Of a stretch of 64,000 bases of DNA, positions 3,955 through 57,826 are shown piece after piece. The notes under the pieces were generated by a model. The model was not told the DNA's origin. It searched no databases and was given only the letters and a program-made list of their open reading frames with translations. The stretch comes from Candidatus Sungiibacteriota bacterium (GTDB lineage: Bacteria > Patescibacteriota > Minisyncoccia > Sungbacterales > HO2-52-23), in NCBI GenBank assembly GCA_016432465.1, contig CP066690.1, positions 186,702 to 250,701 on the forward strand, written 5' to 3'. Made by a program: the position numbers and the translations under genes. Numbering within the stretch: position 1 is the stretch's first letter; each line of letters opens with the position of its first letter.

Positions 3955-4024
3955 CCCCGTTAGAGATAAGTCCCGACGTGACGTCGGGACTGCCGATACC
4001 CAAGGCATCGGATCTCTAACGGGG
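3955..4024. mobile_element. MITE-like element (~70 bp) with 13-bp terminal inverted repeats CCCCGTTAGAGAT / ATCTCTAACGGGG and the internal hairpin GTCCCGACGTGACGTCGGGAC
   Basis: Terminal inverted repeats read directly; the same core recurs at 33032-33133, 56867-56968 and 58365-58554. Confidence 0.55.
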
Positions 4025-9254: not shown

Positions 9255-9980
9255 CTATTGGACATTTTTATTAATTGAGTAGGTGGTCCAGCGTTTTTCT
9301 CCTTCTTTCCGGAGGATATCTTTTATAACCAAGTCCTGCAAGTCGCGCTGGATTGTTTTAGTGCTTATCCCAGCGAAATGCGGCACAAAATCGCTGATTT
9401 TTGCTTGTTGGGATTGCTTAAGATGCTCAAGAATCTTATGCTGCCGTTCGTTAATTGATTCGGAGATTGGTGTAAGTCCTTTGTCTTCTTTTGTTGCAAA
9501 TTCCTCCCATGTAGGGAGTTCTTCTTTTTCTGATTCTCGGACAGGTTGCGATTCATTATTAGTAGTCTGGGTTGGGGTTATGATTTCTTCTTGTTTATTT
9601 TCGGTTGCCTTTTTTACCACATCCAGCTCACGATTAAAAAAATCAGCGAGAAAATCATATTCTCGCTCCAAAACCGTAATGTTTATAGGCTTCACAAAAC
9701 GCAGGGAACGCGCAAGGCCTAGATATCCTTTTATGGTATGGATTTTAGCAATTATTGATGTTGCTTCTCGCTCAAAATCAGGCGAATAACCATATTCTGT
9801 GACGCCCCCAAAAATCTCGTTTGCTTTCTCCCGCAGGTTTTTTCGCAATACTTCCCCTTGCGGGAAAAAATCAGTAACGCGATAAAGAGCGAGAGTGAGT
9901 TCAAAAATTCTTCTGTGTAATTCTTTGGTTATTTTGGACTCCAACATACTTTTCAAGTCTACCTGTAAGCCAGAAAACAT
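9255..9980 (-). CDS. Four-helix-bundle (23S rRNA intervening-sequence protein-like) domain fused to a C-terminal DeoR-type winged HTH
   Basis: ELTLALYRVTDFFPQGE...L.RA motif; C-terminal ERQHKILEHLKQSQQAKISDFVPHFAGISTKTIQRDLQDL HTH. Confidence 0.55.
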   Translation of the reverse strand: MFSGLQVDLKSMLESKITKELHRRIFELTLALYRVTDFFPQGEVLRKNLREKANEIFGGVTEYGYSPDFEREATSIIAKIHTIKGYLGLARSLRFVKPINITVLEREYDFLADFFNRELDVVKKATENKQEEIITPTQTTNNESQPVRESEKEELPTWEEFATKEDKGLTPISESINERQHKILEHLKQSQQAKISDFVPHFAGISTKTIQRDLQDLVIKDILRKEGEKRWTTYSINKNVQ

Positions 9981-9997
9981 GTCAAATCACCACTTGA

Positions 9998-10020
9998 CTA
10001 TAGAGGTCGGACCTCTATAG
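9998..10020. repeat. REP palindrome CTATAGAGGTCgGACCTCTATAG (copy 1, 10 bp upstream of the RAYT start)
   Basis: 23-bp unit with perfect 11-bp arms; four copies in the window. Confidence 0.8.
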
Positions 10021-10030
10021 AGTAAAAGAT

Positions 10031-10711
10031 ATGCACAACCAACAGGTACCAGAAGACAAATACTATCATGTTTATAACAGGGGCGTAGAGAAGAGAGATG
10101 TTTTTCTGAATAACTCAGATTACCATAGATTCTTATATCTTCTTTTTGCGTGCAATGATACTGCCCAACTTCTAAATTCCCAATTTCACTATAGAGGTCC
10201 GACCTCTATAGTAAATAAAGAACGAGATCAGCTTGTTGATATTATTTGTTTTTGTCTTATGCCGAATCACTATCATTTAATACTAAAACCAAGAAAAGAG
10301 AACGGTATGCCATTATTTATGCAAAAAATTGGCACCGGTTACACGATGTATTTTAATACAAAAAGGCAAAGAAGCGGTGTCTTATTTCAAGGCGGCTACA
10401 AATCTATATTAATTGATAATGAAGGCTATCTTTCCCATCTGACTCGCTACATCCATCTCAATCCAGCCGAGCTTATTGAACCAAAATGGAAAAAAGTAGG
10501 TATACTTAAAGCCAAAGAAACACACAAATTTGTAAAAGAGTATAAGTGGTCAAGTTACCGTGACTATCTGAATACACCACATTTTCCTCATTTGCTAAAC
10601 GTGGAACTTATCAAAGAACTATTCCTGCCAAAACAAGAATACGAGTCTTTTGTCCACGAGTGGTTAGTTGATAATATAAATCTGTTGGGGCGATATACCC
10701 TTGAAGATTAA
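10031..10711 (+). CDS. REP-associated tyrosine transposase (RAYT, IS200/Y1 transposase family)
   Basis: YHVYNRG, HuH motif MPNHYHLIL, catalytic Tyr motif RYIHLNP, and the RAYT-specific KWSSYRDY (W.WSS) motif; flanked by REP copies. Confidence 0.8.
   Translation: MHNQQVPEDKYYHVYNRGVEKRDVFLNNSDYHRFLYLLFACNDTAQLLNSQFHYRGPTSIVNKERDQLVDIICFCLMPNHYHLILKPRKENGMPLFMQKIGTGYTMYFNTKRQRSGVLFQGGYKSILIDNEGYLSHLTRYIHLNPAELIEPKWKKVGILKAKETHKFVKEYKWSSYRDYLNTPHFPHLLNVELIKELFLPKQEYESFVHEWLVDNINLLGRYTLED
10189..10211. repeat. REP palindrome copy 2 (centre base inverted), in-frame inside the RAYT CDS, encoding HYRGPTSIV
   Basis: CTATAGAGGTCcGACCTCTATAG inside the 10031..10711 ORF. Confidence 0.75.
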
Positions 10712-10734
10712 CTATAGAGGTCGGACCTCTATAG
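10712..10734. repeat. REP palindrome copy 3, immediately after the RAYT stop
   Basis: CTATAGAGGTCgGACCTCTATAG. Confidence 0.8.
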
Positions 10735-10780
10735 AGATGGGGGACTTGACGTACGAAGGTCCTACTGATAGCATGCGGGT

Positions 10781-11248
10781 ATGTTTAAAAGCCTCTTAAG
10801 ATTTCTGGTGCCTGTGTTGGGAATTATTTTGATTGGGGGCGGGGTTTGGTACGGAATTCAGTACTGGCGGTATATAAATAGCGAGGAGTATCAGGCGATT
10901 AAATATACAAAGGAAATTACGAAAAAATATGCCGAAGATACTTTTGGCGGTGATACGCCGGAAGAAACTCTTCGGCTTTTTATTGATGCTTTGAAAAAGG
11001 GAGATACTGACCTTGCGGCTCGGTATTTTATTTTGGATAAACAGGAGGAGTGGAAAGAGGATTTGGCAAAGATTAAGGAGAAAGGGTTGCTAAAGGATAT
11101 GATAAGAGATTTGGAGAGATTAGAAAAATCAAAAGAAGAGCCAGAAGAGGTCTTCTATGTTACAACCAACGAGGCAAATGTTGTCTCTGTTCAGTTGATA
11201 GTCGGTAAAAATCCGTATAGTAAGAAATGGAAAATTTACGAACTTTAA
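10781..11248 (+). CDS. Membrane-anchored hypothetical protein (N-terminal TM segment, charged C-terminal domain)
   Basis: FLVPVLGIILIGGGVWYGIQYW TM segment; no recognisable domain. Confidence 0.45.
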   Translation: MFKSLLRFLVPVLGIILIGGGVWYGIQYWRYINSEEYQAIKYTKEITKKYAEDTFGGDTPEETLRLFIDALKKGDTDLAARYFILDKQEEWKEDLAKIKEKGLLKDMIRDLERLEKSKEEPEEVFYVTTNEANVVSVQLIVGKNPYSKKWKIYEL

Positions 11249-14200
11249 AATTGATAATGTATTACCTATTGGGAGGGACACTTTTTGTGCTCCCTCTTTT
11301 TGGATTTGCCTATGATGAAAAAACAACGCATCCAGCGCTTACTCAAGAAATAGTCAAGTTCTTTAATTTAAAATCTAAAGATTTAAAGATTTCGGATGAG
11401 GACACGGAATATATTATTCAGGGAAGTATTGACGAGGACGCCGGAGCAAGATGGATGTATCACTTTTATGACCCCGTTTATAATCGCGGTTTATCGCTAG
11501 TACGACAATGGCGAAGCTCAAAAGATTGGGGACAGAATACGCTCGCGCAAGCAAAATATGATGTGGGTTTTGAGGCAAAAAGTCTTGGTGGAACACTTGG
11601 GCCACTTTTTGGTTCAAAAACCGATTATTCTTGGGAACGAGGGATTTATGAATATGCATGGGGAAATAAAAAATGGGGTCTTCTTTCGCTTGGACATATC
11701 CTGCATCTGATTGAAGATGCAACTGTGCCGGATCACTCCAGAAATGATCCGCATCCACCGATTTTAGACTGGGGAAGCCCCTATGAGAACTGGACTAAAA
11801 AATTTGATAGACAAACAATAAATCCTGGAGAGATAGCCGACGAAAAACTTATTATTCTGAATAGTCTAGACGACTATTTTAATAAGTCAGCTTCCTATTC
11901 AAATAACTATTTTTTCAGTAAAGACACAATATTTTCAAAAGAGTACATTTCCCCTACTGTTATTGAAAAAGGAATAGAGAAATTAAGTGACGGCAGAAAC
12001 TACTCATTTGGTTATGGGGAAGATTCGAAAGGCAATAAATTTAGACTCATACAAATCAAGGAAAGTCCCTGGCAAGATCCTGAATATTCGTTAAAGGATC
12101 CGGACCTTAAAATCCTCTCCGACTACTGGTCCCTTCTCTCCAAACAAGCCGTGCTGAACGGCGCCGGAGTGGTAAAACTTTTCTTTGATGAGGTGGAGAA
12201 AGAAAAACAAACGCGGGCCCTATACAATAAAAATCGCTCGTGGCTGGGAAAACAAATTGACAAATTTAAGCGAGACTCGTTTAAAACCGCTAACGTACTT
12301 TACGGGATAACCCCCAAGCTGGAGGATTTGGAGGAAAAAGTAACTACCGAGGTCTCGCCTCCAAAAGGAGGAGAAACCTCAACCACCATTATAGAAACAC
12401 CATCAGTTCTTGAACCACCGAAAGTTAAACCCGCTGAGGTCTCGCCTCCTACAGTGACAGCAGTAGAAACCTCAAAACAAACACCCCCACCCGCAGAAAC
12501 TAAACAACCGCCGCTATCCCCTACTCAACCCAAGCCATCAGCAAACACCTCTTCCTTTCTTCCTATTGCCGGCGCCGGTGGAGGAAGAAAAGACGACGAA
12601 CCGCCGAGTCCCCCTCACATCATTACCGAACCCTCCCAAGATAACCTTATTTTTGCCACAACCACCATTACTTTCCGCGGCCGAGCAGAAAGAAAGACAA
12701 CCGTCATCAACAGCTTCTCTGCAAACACCGTCAAGGTGGCTGATGACGAAAACTGGTCATTAACTCTGGGTCCTCTGCCGCAGGGAACTACTACTATAGA
12801 CTTTTCTGCAAAGGACGAGGCGGGAAATAAATCCCAAAGCAAGTCGCGGACCGTATTTATAGACACCACCGGTCCCCAAATATCCCTTACTATAAATGAA
12901 TGCGGCCAGTCCCTCTCATCGTCATCCTGCCTCACCCCTAAAACAACCCTGAACCTGGAGTGGTCCTCCACCGACCCGGAGTTGAGTCACTTTTTACTGG
13001 AATGCGAAGCCAACGGCTCCGCATGCCAAAACTTCAATATCTCGCAAACCAACGCCACCACCACGACCTACAGCGTGCCCGGCGATAATACTATCTATAC
13101 GTTCAAGGCCCGCGCCGTGGATATACGAGGAAACGTAAGCCCAACCGAAACTAAAACCGTAGAAATAATCTCGCGGCCGTTGATTATTAACGAAATCGCC
13201 TGGATGGGAACATCAGCCACCCGATCTAGCGACGAATGGTTGGAGATCCACAACACAACGGATAAAACAATAAATCTTGCCAATTGGGTGCTGCGCTCCG
13301 AAACTGATCAGACACCCTATATACAACTCTCCGGCAGCATTGGCGCAAAAAGTTTCCTTATCCTTGAAAGAACCGACGATAACACCATCTCCGATATAAC
13401 TGCGCACCAAACCTACACCGGCGCCCTGGAAAATAGCGGCGAGGTAGTGGAGCTTCTTTATGCCTCAACCACTATTGATAAAACTCCGGAAATTTCAACC
13501 TGCGGCGGCTGGTGCGCGGGTGTGGCTGGCGGACAATACCTGACCATGGAGCGCTACGAACCCCTATCTTCCGGAACTGACGCGTCAAATTGGAATTCGT
13601 GGGGAGGATTTTTAGCCAATGGGAAAAACGCGGATAACGCGGCTATAAACGGCACGCCGGGCAAGCGCAACAGCATAAATTATTTAATTACCAAAGACGG
13701 CTCAACGCTCGCGCAAAATAAAACCCTCAAAAAATCCGGCGGCCCGTATCTTGTTACTACCGATTATATAGTTAATAGCGGCATAACCCTCACTATAGAT
13801 CCGGGCGTGGTCGTAAAATTTTATAACGGCGCATCGGCTCTTATTATAAACGGAACCCTAAAAGCCGAAGGAACCTCTACCGATAAAATTGTCTTTACTT
13901 CTTTCAAAGATGATAGCTACGGCGGCGACATGAATCAGGACGCCGCCGCGACCACGCCGCAATACGGAGACTGGGGAACAATAAAAATCGCGGGAAGCGG
14001 ATCATTTGATCAAACCCTTGTCCGCTACGGCGGCGTAAAAGACTCCTCCTCAAATTTCTGGGCCAATATAAGATCCAGCGCCGGATCAGTAGTGATTAAA
14101 AACTCAACTATTGAAGAGGCTGGAGTTTATGGCTTGTGGTTCAACAATGCTTCGGCCAGCATCCAATCAAGCACTATTAAAAATAATACGCATGATAATC

Positions 14201-14520
14201 AGGCATCCGGAATTGTGGTGGGCGGCGGCTCGCTCACAGAAATTAAAAACTCTGTTGTTGAAAATAATCTTTCGGCGGGCATCCTCCTTACCAACTCCAC
14301 CACCACAACCATCAGCGACTCTCTTGTCCAAAACCATCAAAGCTCGGCAAGTTCGCGGGGACTTTCTCTTGTCTCCTCCTCGCCATCTATTAAAAATACA
14401 ACTTTTAAAAACAATACCGTCGCTATTGAGGCAGACGGCAGCTCTTCAGTTTCCAACGGCGGAGGAATTATTTTTGAAGGCAATACCACCAATACCGTAC
14501 CAGCAAACCTGATTCCATAA
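11227..14520 (+). CDS. Large secreted protein: zinc-dependent phospholipase C-like domain, Pro/Thr linker, Ig-like domains, lamin-tail domain (LTD), right-handed beta-helix repeats
   Basis: HFYDP and LGHILHLIEDATVPDHS (PLC_Zn-like); LTD IINEIAWMGTSATRSSDEWLEIHNTTDKTINLANWVL; NSGITLTIDPGVVVKF beta-helix repeats. Confidence 0.75.
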   Translation: MENLRTLKLIMYYLLGGTLFVLPLFGFAYDEKTTHPALTQEIVKFFNLKSKDLKISDEDTEYIIQGSIDEDAGARWMYHFYDPVYNRGLSLVRQWRSSKDWGQNTLAQAKYDVGFEAKSLGGTLGPLFGSKTDYSWERGIYEYAWGNKKWGLLSLGHILHLIEDATVPDHSRNDPHPPILDWGSPYENWTKKFDRQTINPGEIADEKLIILNSLDDYFNKSASYSNNYFFSKDTIFSKEYISPTVIEKGIEKLSDGRNYSFGYGEDSKGNKFRLIQIKESPWQDPEYSLKDPDLKILSDYWSLLSKQAVLNGAGVVKLFFDEVEKEKQTRALYNKNRSWLGKQIDKFKRDSFKTANVLYGITPKLEDLEEKVTTEVSPPKGGETSTTIIETPSVLEPPKVKPAEVSPPTVTAVETSKQTPPPAETKQPPLSPTQPKPSANTSSFLPIAGAGGGRKDDEPPSPPHIITEPSQDNLIFATTTITFRGRAERKTTVINSFSANTVKVADDENWSLTLGPLPQGTTTIDFSAKDEAGNKSQSKSRTVFIDTTGPQISLTINECGQSLSSSSCLTPKTTLNLEWSSTDPELSHFLLECEANGSACQNFNISQTNATTTTYSVPGDNTIYTFKARAVDIRGNVSPTETKTVEIISRPLIINEIAWMGTSATRSSDEWLEIHNTTDKTINLANWVLRSETDQTPYIQLSGSIGAKSFLILERTDDNTISDITAHQTYTGALENSGEVVELLYASTTIDKTPEISTCGGWCAGVAGGQYLTMERYEPLSSGTDASNWNSWGGFLANGKNADNAAINGTPGKRNSINYLITKDGSTLAQNKTLKKSGGPYLVTTDYIVNSGITLTIDPGVVVKFYNGASALIINGTLKAEGTSTDKIVFTSFKDDSYGGDMNQDAAATTPQYGDWGTIKIAGSGSFDQTLVRYGGVKDSSSNFWANIRSSAGSVVIKNSTIEEAGVYGLWFNNASASIQSSTIKNNTHDNQASGIVVGGGSLTEIKNSVVENNLSAGILLTNSTTTTISDSLVQNHQSSASSRGLSLVSSSPSIKNTTFKNNTVAIEADGSSSVSNGGGIIFEGNTTNTVPANLIP

Positions 14521-33275: not shown

Positions 33276-33298
33276 CTATAGAGGTCGGACCTCTATAG
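33276..33298. repeat. REP palindrome copy 4 (CTATAGAGGTCgGACCTCTATAG) just downstream of the peroxiredoxin gene
   Basis: Identical to the REPs flanking the RAYT. Confidence 0.8.
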
Positions 33299-33302
33299 AA
33301 AC

Positions 33303-33887
33303 TTACCTTAACTCTTGATAAACCCTACCGGCTTTTTTGATAGAGGGTTTAATCGTTGCCTCCCCTTCTTCCCAACTGGCGGGACAAACATTGCCGGGAT
33401 GACTCTTAACATATTGCAAAGCTTTTAGTTTTCTAAGAATCTCGGCAGTATTGCGTCCAATGACGTCAGTCACAATTTCTACGGCCCGCAAAGCTCCCTC
33501 TGGGTCAACTATAAACACAGCGCGCTGCGCCATGCCTTTTTCCTCATTGTAAATCCCAAGCTCGCGGGAAAATTTACCATTGTGATCCGCGGCCATAAGA
33601 AATGGCAGACCCTTCAGAAGCCCCTCGGTTTCAACCCAGGCCTTGTGAGTATAAACCGTATCCGTGCTTGCTACCACCACCTCGGTCTTTAATTTTTTAA
33701 ACTCGGACTGAAATTTTTTAAGATCACGCAATTCCGTGGGGCAGACAAAAGTAAAATCCGCCGGATAGAAAAATAAAATGAGCCAGCGCTTGGCAAAATT
33801 TTTATTGTCAATACGCTCAATCGCCTCTTTCTCCGGATTATAAACCTCAAGGGAAAAATGAGGGAATTTTTTATCTACTGTAAACAT
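33303..33887 (-). CDS. Peroxiredoxin (AhpC/TSA family)
   Basis: FFYPADFTFVCPTEL peroxidatic-Cys motif. Confidence 0.9.
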   Translation of the reverse strand: MFTVDKKFPHFSLEVYNPEKEAIERIDNKNFAKRWLILFFYPADFTFVCPTELRDLKKFQSEFKKLKTEVVVASTDTVYTHKAWVETEGLLKGLPFLMAADHNGKFSRELGIYNEEKGMAQRAVFIVDPEGALRAVEIVTDVIGRNTAEILRKLKALQYVKSHPGNVCPASWEEGEATIKPSIKKAGRVYQELR

Positions 33888-50207: not shown

Positions 50208-50232
50208 CAGCCCCGACGTTACGTCGGGGCTG
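50208..50232 (-). terminator. Intrinsic terminator CAGCCCCGACGT t ACGTCGGGGCTG 22 nt after the pafA-like stop
   Basis: 12-bp stem followed by TTTTTAAATTTGTTTCC on the minus strand; shares its core with the 3970-3990 hairpin. Confidence 0.6.
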
Positions 50233-56427: not shown

Positions 56428-56450
56428 TAAAAAATAGCACACTAGTGCTA
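56428..56450 (-). terminator. Hairpin AAAATAGCACA cta GTGCTATTTT (terminator/operator-like); a near-identical copy lies at 57739-57761
   Basis: Palindrome followed by TTTATTTCAGTT on the minus strand. Confidence 0.4.
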
Positions 56451-56464
56451 TTTTGCAATATGGT

Positions 56465-57738: not shown

Positions 57739-57761
57739 AAACTAAAATAGCACAGATGTGC
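57739..57761 (-). terminator. Hairpin AAAATAGCACA gat GTGCTATTTA between hicA and the methyltransferase gene
   Basis: Second copy of the 56428-56450 palindrome. Confidence 0.4.
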
Positions 57762-57826
57762 TATTTAGTCAAACGGCACAAGCGGGAACCTGTTTTGCAG
57801 AAACAAATGGTTGGTTGGTGCCGAGT

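Follow-up and report, generated by a model that had tools for sequence, protein, structure and literature searches.

A stretch of 64,000 nucleotides from a Candidatus Sungiibacteriota bacterium (GenBank assembly GCA_016432465.1, contig CP066690.1, positions 186,702 to 250,701), here called the 64-kb window, contains one gene for a Y1/HUH transposase of the RAYT type, the tyrosine transposases associated with repetitive extragenic palindromic (REP) sequences. The gene is bracketed by two copies of a 23-bp REP palindrome and carries a third copy, in frame, within its own open reading frame (ORF). REP/RAYT systems are widespread, and both the control of RAYT expression and the matching of a RAYT to its repeats are poorly understood. 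Comparison with homologous loci revealed that a copy of the locus's own REP at the same place inside the RAYT gene recurs across the family and changes together with the copies that flank the gene.

The protein of 226 amino acids (aa) encoded by the window gene contains the RAYT motifs NHYHLIL (residues 79 to 85), RYIHLNP (139 to 145), and KWSSYRDY (172 to 179). Together with a Pfam match (Table 1) and the fold search described below, these motifs bear out a first-pass annotation, made from the sequence letters, which had called the gene a REP-flanked Y1/HUH RAYT. The best and sole NCBIfam match is NF047646 (REP_Tyr_transpos) at 42 bits, below the curated cutoff of 80, and by sequence the protein is a distant relative of the characterized proteobacterial RAYTs. 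Searching the PDB with the single window protein returned only nonsignificant RPA70 matches (E=0.14), and a profile search gave a weak match to the ISDra2 TnpA (E=0.003). The structure 4ER8, an Escherichia coli RAYT bound to a REP hairpin, was found by fold search alone, where it was the best solved structure (E=5.8e-6; template modeling score, 0.70, target normalized) and ranked above the ISDra2 and IS608 TnpA structures. The AlphaFold2 model used has a mean predicted local distance difference test score (pLDDT) of 83.5 and a predicted template modeling score of 0.83; its elements include a strand at residues 11 to 18, a helix at 28 to 40, strands at 69 to 76 and 80 to 87, and helices at 92 to 112 and 131 to 142. 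No substitution of H80, H82, or Tyr140 occurs in an alignment of 36 homologues or in any of the 158 homologues of the survey described below. Tyr140 corresponds by motif to Y115 of E. coli RayT, which we take from the 4ER8 work to be the catalytic tyrosine.

The window protein is 100% identical to an annotated "transposase" of a Candidatus Sungiibacteriota metagenome-assembled genome (MAG), and the identical gene with all three REP copies was recovered without a frameshift from six independent Logan assemblies. An assembly artefact and a pseudogene are thereby excluded, and the intact ORF of the first-pass annotation stands. The window holds one copy of the gene in 64 kb; one MAG among the homologous loci holds two homologues (L058 and L059).

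The internal REP lies in a linker of 28 residues, between helix α1 and strand β2 of the HUH fold, that is modeled as coil except for a three-residue helix, with a mean pLDDT of 58 for residues 51 to 60, and is predicted to be a permissive, low-confidence or disordered segment. A motif-anchored count on the two sequences places the asparagine of strand β1 64 aa before the first HUH histidine in the window RAYT and 40 aa before it in E. coli RayT. The REP-hosting linker is by this count extra sequence of about 24 residues relative to a canonical RAYT, in agreement with the excess of about 20 residues estimated at first pass.

Table 1. Features of the RAYT locus and the dispersed REP copy in the 64-kb window
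Feature	Position	Strand	Remarks
Promoter-like TTGACT-18-TAGAGT	9994..10023	+	Consensus scan; encloses upstream REP; ends 7 nt before ATG
Upstream REP copy	9998-10020	none	Center G; exact match; ends 10 nt before ATG
RAYT-type Y1/HUH transposase ORF	10031..10711	+	226 aa; Pfam Y1_Tnp, E=1.5e-9
Linker DNA, residues 41-68 (28 aa)	10151..10234	+	Between helix 28-40 and strand 69-76; houses internal REP
Internal REP copy	10189-10211	none	Center C; exact match; in frame, codons 53-61
HUH motif H80-Y81-H82	10268..10276	+	H80 and H82 are invariant columns in homologue alignments
Tyr codon Y140 in RYIHLNP	10448..10450	+	Invariant column; matches Y115 of E. coli RayT (DYIYINP) by motif
Downstream REP copy	10712-10734	none	Center G; exact match; first base directly after TAA
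Only dispersed REP copy in the window	33276-33298		Intergenic; 4 nt beyond stop of minus-strand ORF 33303..33887

The palindrome, CTATAGAGGTC[G/C]GACCTCTATAG (pattern CTATAGAGGTCNGACCTCTATAG), has exactly four exact matches in the window, compared with 0 in 100 shuffles and a chance expectation of 0, and no copies beyond these four were found in the window when up to three mismatches were allowed. Three of the four sit at the RAYT ORF. The first-pass annotation had placed the flanking copies 10 bp before the start codon and 1 bp after the stop codon; the upstream distance is correct, and the downstream copy in fact follows the TAA with a gap of 0 nt. Its internal copy, with the inverted center base and in frame in an intact ORF, and its fourth, distant copy were both recovered as exact matches. 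The internal copy begins at the third base of codon H53, ends at the first base of V61, and is translated as (H)YRGPTSI(V). Because the stem is perfect and only the center base breaks the symmetry, reverse-complementing the upstream copy yields the internal copy exactly. All four copies are predicted to fold as single-stranded DNA (ssDNA) into hairpins of 10 to 13 bp (−8 to −11 kcal/mol; z, −4.6 to −7.0), with 10 bp at −8.1 kcal/mol (z=−4.6) for the upstream copy and 11 bp at −9.7 kcal/mol (z=−7.0) for the internal copy; the hairpin of the dispersed copy can be extended to a 14-bp stem.

The homologue family is large, with at least 7,948 members at E≤1e-5 among 8,000 scored candidates. We fetched DNA loci of the family, 80 of them in GTDB species genomes and 80 in metagenomes, and analyzed the 158 with a complete ORF. 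Their proteins are 35 to 53% identical to the window protein, and the loci with named genomes are mostly from Patescibacteria, with a few bins labeled Omnitrophota, Gastranaerophilales, Nitrospiraceae, and Gammaproteobacteria. In a search for perfect hairpins, most of the genes proved to lie between copies of a palindrome that varies in sequence among genomes, and many loci to have a copy of their own flanking palindrome around codon 50 to 60. The palindrome TGTTCGAAGCTTAGCTTCGAACA of L003, for example, is found 17 nt upstream of the gene, at codon 53, and over the stop codon, and upstream, internal, and downstream copies are likewise present of TAAGGCTGTCsGACAGCCTTA in L007, TCCAAGGTCGAACCTTGGA in L012, and ATGTTGGACTTACGAAGTCCAACAT in L068.

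With an exact shared match of at least 14 nt between regions of one locus as the criterion for a copy, the upstream and downstream flanks share a sequence in 123 of the 158 loci, and the ORF interior shares one with its own flanks in 77, of which 60 match both flanks. Of these internal copies, 67 of the 77 map to window residues 44 to 70 (site 1), with a peak of 41 loci at residues 55 to 59; nine loci have a copy at a second site (residues 145 to 164) and two have one elsewhere. When the interior of one locus was compared with the flanks of a random other locus, matches were found in only 12 of 784 comparisons (1.5%), and with a mismatch-tolerant local score the locus's own REP was detected at site 1 in 51% of loci against 2.9% for the REP of another locus. 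A perfect hairpin of at least 8 bp is present in 53 of 158 site-1 segments and in 5 of 316 control segments of equal length from the catalytic core. The most stable window of a sliding-window minimum free energy analysis lies at site 1 in 62 of 158 genes (about 22 expected), a count blurred by windows that hold the downstream REP or the second site. The loops of the three copies agree exactly, directly or as reverse complements, in about 87% of comparisons. The same matching of ORF to flanks found no internal REP in E. coli K-12 rayT, where the flanks share a 37-nt REP and the longest ORF-to-flank match is 8 to 9 nt. The first-pass annotation had suggested that the internal REP, unusual as it is, may mark a self-targeting event; this reading gains no support from the survey, in which 67 of 158 loci have a copy of the own REP at this place in the linker.

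Four close relatives of the window locus were located (75, 67, 60, and 60% amino acid identity), three of which share the neighbors found in the window, NTP_transferase and a DeoR-type helix-turn-helix (HTH) gene upstream on the other strand and an ORF of about 150 aa downstream. On the long contig of L168, the ORF of about 150 aa is followed by an LTD/beta-helix protein. The shared neighbors suggest that the locus was inherited vertically, without recent mobility. The internal copy occupies the same codon position in all of these relatives, with boundaries and length unchanged, and what varies from genome to genome are the loop-proximal bases, each variant being common to three or four copies of its genome. 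The window and L167 have GAGGTCsGACCTC, L168 has GAGGTTCGGCCTC, L169 has GAGGCAAGGCCTC with a reverse-complemented internal copy (GAGGCCTTGCCTC), and L170 has GAGGCGAAACCTC with reverse-complemented internal and downstream copies (GAGGTTTCGCCTC).

Codon identity was compared at the columns that have the same amino acid in all five proteins. The codon is identical in all five sequences at four of five such columns inside the REP and at five of 92 outside it (Fisher p=1.7e-4), so that synonymous sites outside the REP are saturated. The sole codon change inside the REP, from GGT to GGC, is compensated by a change from ACC to GCC. Within the Sung clade, the internal REP thus persists with frozen codons over 40% amino acid divergence.

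At the protein level, YRG-x-[T/A]-SI is kept at site 1 in the closer half of the 36-homologue alignment (down to 44% identity), and YRGxxSI is found in 60 of the 120 best-matching homologues. The first-pass annotation had named conservation of the REP-encoded residues in the subfamily as what would refute an insertion, and this alignment largely provides it, with the qualification that it is the DNA palindrome that is conserved rather than the peptide. Among the 60 YRGxxSI proteins the fourth residue varies (L, F, S, P, R, or E), and the fifth is T or A in 59, as expected from the pairing of GGT with ACC and of GGC with GCC. Depending on the lineage, similar palindromes encode YRGxTSI or QGRTL, or else IEVQPQY or SKDVGRPY, and the base at the palindrome center is the second of its codon in 26 loci, the first in 21, and the third in 2. 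In some annotated homologues, translation of the flanking palindrome accounts for an extension at the N or C terminus (RYRGRTSIV and TIEVQPR). Judged from these sequences, the conserved entity at site 1 is the DNA palindrome and not the peptide. The match to the own REP, the variable peptide and frame, and the frozen synonymous sites therefore point to a constraint on the identity of the nucleic acid hairpin rather than on the protein. The internal REP would be a clean example of a coding segment dictated by a DNA structural element, with the covariation of Gly-GGY and Thr-Ala visible in the protein.

A second in-ORF site was observed at residues 145 to 164 (window positions 10463 to 10522) in the nine loci L008, L022, L026, L029, L052, L070, L107, L111, and L112. 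There the own REP (e.g., CTATCGAGGTTCAACCTCGATAG) encodes YRGSTSI in place of the conserved EPxWKExGI, after the helix of the catalytic tyrosine, and the segment is shorter with a REP (18 to 25 aa) than without one (27 aa). L026, L107, and L111 have REPs at both internal sites, those of L107 being at codons 57 and 150. The second site likely represents an independent acquisition.

At site 1, comparison of the closest pairs of REP-positive and REP-negative genes (63 to 76% identity) showed linker lengths within 5 residues of each other in 13 of 14 pairs, and most of these discordant pairs have visibly related peptides (SKDVGRPYI versus YKDVRRLYN; REGLTFTEL versus SGGLSFPEL). Several "negative" loci retain a hairpin or a relic of one, such as CTATAAAGGTTTAGGATCTTTAGAT in L001. 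The "absence" of the copy is therefore mostly a matter of decay or of the threshold and not an empty site, and we conclude that the site-1 copy is apparently old and has evolved in place.

The median distance between the end of the nearest upstream hairpin and the ATG is 20 nt in the family (quartiles, 14 to 30), and the downstream hairpin overlaps the end of the ORF or lies no more than 5 nt from it in 58 of 88 loci. The promoter-like sequence around the upstream REP of the window has a counterpart in the four syntenic relatives, where TTGnnn-17-TATAGT spans the REP and ends 6 to 8 nt before the ATG in intergenic sequence that is diverged around it. A −10-like site at this distance from the ATG leaves no room for a Shine-Dalgarno sequence, and a leaderless mRNA is therefore probable; the upstream REP would then make up the spacer and −10 region of the RAYT promoter, as we infer from the sequence. 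RNAfold paired the upstream and internal copies over 23 bp in a predicted transcript, an interaction that was set aside because the upstream copy probably precedes the transcription start of the predicted promoter. A scan of positions 9800 to 10900 against Rfam at E≤1 found no known RNA family, just a chance match to snoU85 (12.5 bits).

Two further promoter-like sequences were seen at the locus. The internal REP with its flanks is promoter-like on both strands (10185-10212, plus; 10215-10188, minus), with TATAGT as the −10 element; by inspection, relatives keep the −10 element and have a weak −35 element, and an antisense start inside the RAYT gene would be conceivable. Between the downstream REP and the 155-aa ORF at 10781..11248, TTGACG-17-TAGCAT with a TG element is found at 10746-10774, and TTGAC is kept in four of four syntenic relatives.

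Our preferred interpretation, to which we assign a probability of roughly 0.6, is that the internal palindrome is an ancestral, family-wide component of the REPtron, the RAYT unit with its flanking REPs, and one whose hairpin identity is constrained, likely via recognition by the RAYT with control in cis, and that it is not a recent self-insertion. The RAYT itself would impose the identity of the hairpin, because it must recognize all REP copies, and the internal copy would stay "in register" as RAYT specificity and REP co-evolve. Extruded hairpins may be bound by the enzyme at the upstream copy, which is situated between the −35 and −10 elements of the promoter-like site; the internal copy, 160 nt into the transcribed region, may be bound as well. 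Such binding could produce negative feedback on a potentially genotoxic ssDNA nuclease, keep the enzyme loaded beside its own gene, or both. The REP copy that abuts the stop codon might be a further brake on expression; REPs close to stop codons in E. coli reportedly act as such a brake, a result ascribed to Liang et al. in 2015. Either the enzyme or the hairpins themselves could damp RAYT expression and keep the RAYT acting in cis. That the in-ORF REP is a functional cis-element, with the RAYT treating its gene as one more of the REPs by way of the in-ORF and promoter copies for feedback or cis-loading, is a more specific proposal that we put forward tentatively and at less than even odds.

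Several observations weigh against this interpretation. Only about half of the loci reach the match threshold for an internal copy, and across the 158 loci an internal hairpin was not associated with a shared flanking REP (Fisher p=0.69). On a crude neighbor-joining tree, presence and absence of the internal copy require 47 Fitch steps, compared with 51.3 ± 3.3 for shuffled labels; this near lack of clustering reflects either fast turnover or noisy detection, and taken alone it would favor frequent gain, the opposite of what the closest discordant pairs show. Loops of the upstream, internal, and downstream copies have the same or the inverted orientation relative to each other about equally often (about 50:50; upstream versus internal, 21 same and 20 inverted), which argues against any strictly strand-specific mechanism; on the same ground the inverted center base of the window's internal copy was rejected as a meaningful signal. 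Dispersed copies of the REP are scarce (one in 64 kb). Copying by REP replacement or conversion could maintain the identity of the copies without benefit to the cell, and the step from the internal REP to RAYT binding and autoregulation is our own deduction.

Two of the rival explanations, a neutral passenger and recurrent self-targeting, differ from the preferred interpretation solely in whether the copy has any effect. The internal REP could be a functionless passenger, an old in-frame REP in a permissive linker that is homogenized by RAYT-catalyzed replacement or by template switching at palindromes. A disordered linker would tolerate any peptide, copies have decayed in many lineages, internal hairpins are not associated with intact flanking pairs, and the high agreement of loops in random orientation is what copying or flip-flop predicts. 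A functionless palindrome of 20 to 30 nt, however, would be expected to be quickly lost by synonymous change, yet it is found at the same position at 35 to 50% protein identity, and its codons are frozen across the divergence of the Sung clade. Frequent overwriting of a copy at a fixed position is also unexpected if REPINs, units of two inverted REPs, duplicate at the extremely low rates that have been estimated (bioRxiv 10.1101/2021.07.10.451892), and we consider a passenger unlikely. Repeated independent insertion of REPs at a preferred target in the RAYT gene, which generalizes the idea of the first-pass annotation, would account for the nearly random presence and absence on the neighbor-joining tree, for the second internal site and the genes with two internal copies, for the occurrence of both orientations and two reading frames, and for the longer site-1 segments of REP-positive genes (median, 32 versus 28 aa). 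It is nonetheless improbable, as an insert of 23 bp breaks the frame, the syntenic relatives keep boundaries and length while only loop-proximal bases shift with the flanks, and the discordant pairs, with linkers of similar length and related peptides, speak for decay. Where a REP occupies the second site the segment is shorter, so the REP replaced sequence there and was not inserted. Change in place and the discordant pairs together weaken the case for self-insertion.

The remaining rivals place the function of the segment in the RNA or in the protein. A hairpin acting in the mRNA only, independently of the RAYT, through pausing or attenuation, RNase processing, or stability, would fit the stable hairpin predicted in the transcript, the frequency of REPs at the stop codon in the family, and the precedent of IS200, in which an RNA stem-loop exerts repression. 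A generic hairpin need not match the REP of its genome, loop included, and such a match is seen in dozens of genomes with unrelated REPs; pairing between the upstream and internal copies probably cannot form, with the upstream copy apparently in the promoter of a leaderless start. The first-pass annotation had also raised a regulatory hairpin; in the form of an attenuator confined to the mRNA, it fits the match to the flanking REPs less well than does recognition by the RAYT, and we regard this form as highly improbable. That YRGxxSI is a functional peptide from whose coding sequence the extragenic REPs were derived is barely credible. The motif does occur in half of the 120 closest homologues, and the same peptide is found at the second site in other lineages, but there YRGSTSI is the only open frame of the palindrome. 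Site-1 peptides are unrelated across the family (QGRTL, IEVQPQY, and SKDVGRPY) and vary with the local REP and its frame, codons are identical far more often than at background synonymous sites, and the segment has low confidence in the AlphaFold2 model. The frozen codons and the reading of the palindrome in two frames thus contradict a constraint at the protein level.

Should the more specific proposal of a functional cis-element hold, the gene, its ends, and the dispersed repeats would have to co-evolve as one unit, and each such RAYT gene would hold a "barcode" that identifies the cognate REP and allows REP families to be predicted even in fragmentary metagenomes. Reading the cognate REP from the RAYT gene itself would be useful for fragmentary MAGs of the candidate phyla radiation. 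The internal REP would also be a natural record of RAYT-REP co-evolution and a testable candidate for the autoregulation of a domesticated ssDNA nuclease.

The known system closest to the window locus is the REPtron, exemplified by E. coli rayT (yafM; PDB 4ER8), with which it shares the HUH/Y1 fold, the HUH motif and tyrosine, a lone gene (one copy in the window) bracketed by a palindrome with a further copy elsewhere in the window, and a conserved chromosomal position in relatives. Unlike E. coli rayT, the window gene has a third REP in frame inside the ORF (some lineages have a fourth), and its product is longer (226 versus 165 aa), with a linker longer by about 24 residues and a longer C-terminal part. 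Proteobacterial REPs have a GTAG (or GTGG) tetranucleotide 5′ of the foot of the hairpin. The window REP is, in contrast, a perfect 23-bp palindrome without such a tag: GTAG is absent from the 5′ foot of all four window copies, which are preceded by TTGA, TTCA, TTAA, and TTTT and whose stem begins with CTATAG. The density of one dispersed copy per 64 kb also sets the locus apart from characterized REPtrons; in relatives, 14 copies more than 300 bp from the RAYT gene were found in 395 kb (about 1 per 28 kb), nine of them outside ORFs of at least 100 aa and mostly within 40 nt of the 3′ end of an ORF. The window REP is thus a low-abundance family, comparable to RAYT groups 1 and 4, for which low 16-mer counts have been reported (PMC5581495).

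Short palindromic repeats inside protein-coding genes are known from intragenic REPs and from the Rickettsia palindromic elements (RPE) (PMC3733652), and they resemble the window case in lying in frame in an intact ORF in which a surface or linker peptide is tolerated. These earlier examples were inserted here and there into unrelated host genes (uvrA, recB, and others) and are regarded as neutral or of unknown effect. In the window, by contrast, the host gene is the cognate transposase of the repeat, the position is conserved in the family, and the copy co-varies with the flanks.

Like the window locus, members of the IS200/IS605 family have a Y1/HUH enzyme gene bordered by hairpins, and recognition of ssDNA, a feature of that family, is presumed here. 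Membership of IS200/IS605 was rejected: where those elements are multicopy, have distinct imperfect structures at the left and right ends, and encode a TnpA of about 130 to 155 aa, the window RAYT is present once in the window, with synteny kept down to 60% identity, has identical and perfect end palindromes, is 226 aa long, and is closest in fold to a RAYT. RNA stem-loops of IS200, located at the 5′ end of the gene or close to it, repress transposase synthesis (cited in PMC3733652). The internal hairpin of the window RAYT, unlike these, repeats the end hairpins and is found 160 nt inside the ORF rather than at a ribosome-binding site.

A REPIN is a mobile unit of two inverted REPs in Pseudomonas, and the upstream and internal copies of the window are similar to one in being exact reverse complements for which 23-bp pairing is possible. 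REPIN spacers are of about 60 to 130 bp and noncoding. The spacer in the window is unlike these, being 168 nt long and holding the start codon and 52 RAYT codons, and the orientation of the two copies is random across the family. Longer palindromes or doublets (40 to 50 nt, e.g., AATCTATTGATTCCCGAAACCAATATATTGGTTTCGGGAATCAATAGATT) flank the RAYT homologues of L005, L072, L079, and L133, and these are closer to REPIN-like or terminal inverted repeat-like structures than to a single short REP.

Relative to the known REPtron, in which flanking REPs had already been described, the novelty is the in-ORF REP, family-wide and co-varying. A REP inside a RAYT ORF is not mentioned in Nunvar 2010 (PMC2817692), Bertels & Rainey 2011 (PMC3337134), Di Nocera 2013 (PMC3733652), Bertels 2017 (PMC5581495), Quentin 2018 (PMC6006769), Corneloup 2021 (PMC8266576), or a 2022 preprint (10.1101/2021.07.10.451892). 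Phrase searches found no published description of one, and as subscription-only papers lay outside these searches, an earlier description is possible.

Some neighboring genes and smaller repeats were also recorded. The divergent neighbor of the RAYT gene in the window (9255-9980, minus strand) encodes 241 aa with a C-terminal DeoR-type HTH domain (Pfam E=8.8e-7) and no assigned domain in its N-terminal half. It also stands beside the RAYT gene in relatives with as little as 60% identity, and its 3′ end is overlapped in L168 by a REP copy (1575-1597). Farther downstream in the window is an ORF of 1,097 aa (11227-14520, plus strand) whose counterparts in L161 and L168 have LTD and beta-helix domains, with synteny to the RAYT gene kept in L168. 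The ORF beside the dispersed REP (33303-33887, minus strand) encodes 194 aa with an FTFVCPTE motif and is peroxiredoxin-like by eye. A second palindrome, CCCGACGT[G/T]ACGTCGGG, has two exact copies 46 kb apart (3972-3988 and 50212-50228; 0.01 expected), which might represent a further small family of repeats without a transposase in the vicinity. Similar hairpins, AAAATAGCACA..TGTGCTATTTT, are found 1.3 kb apart at 56431-56454 and 57745-57766 and differ in their loops.

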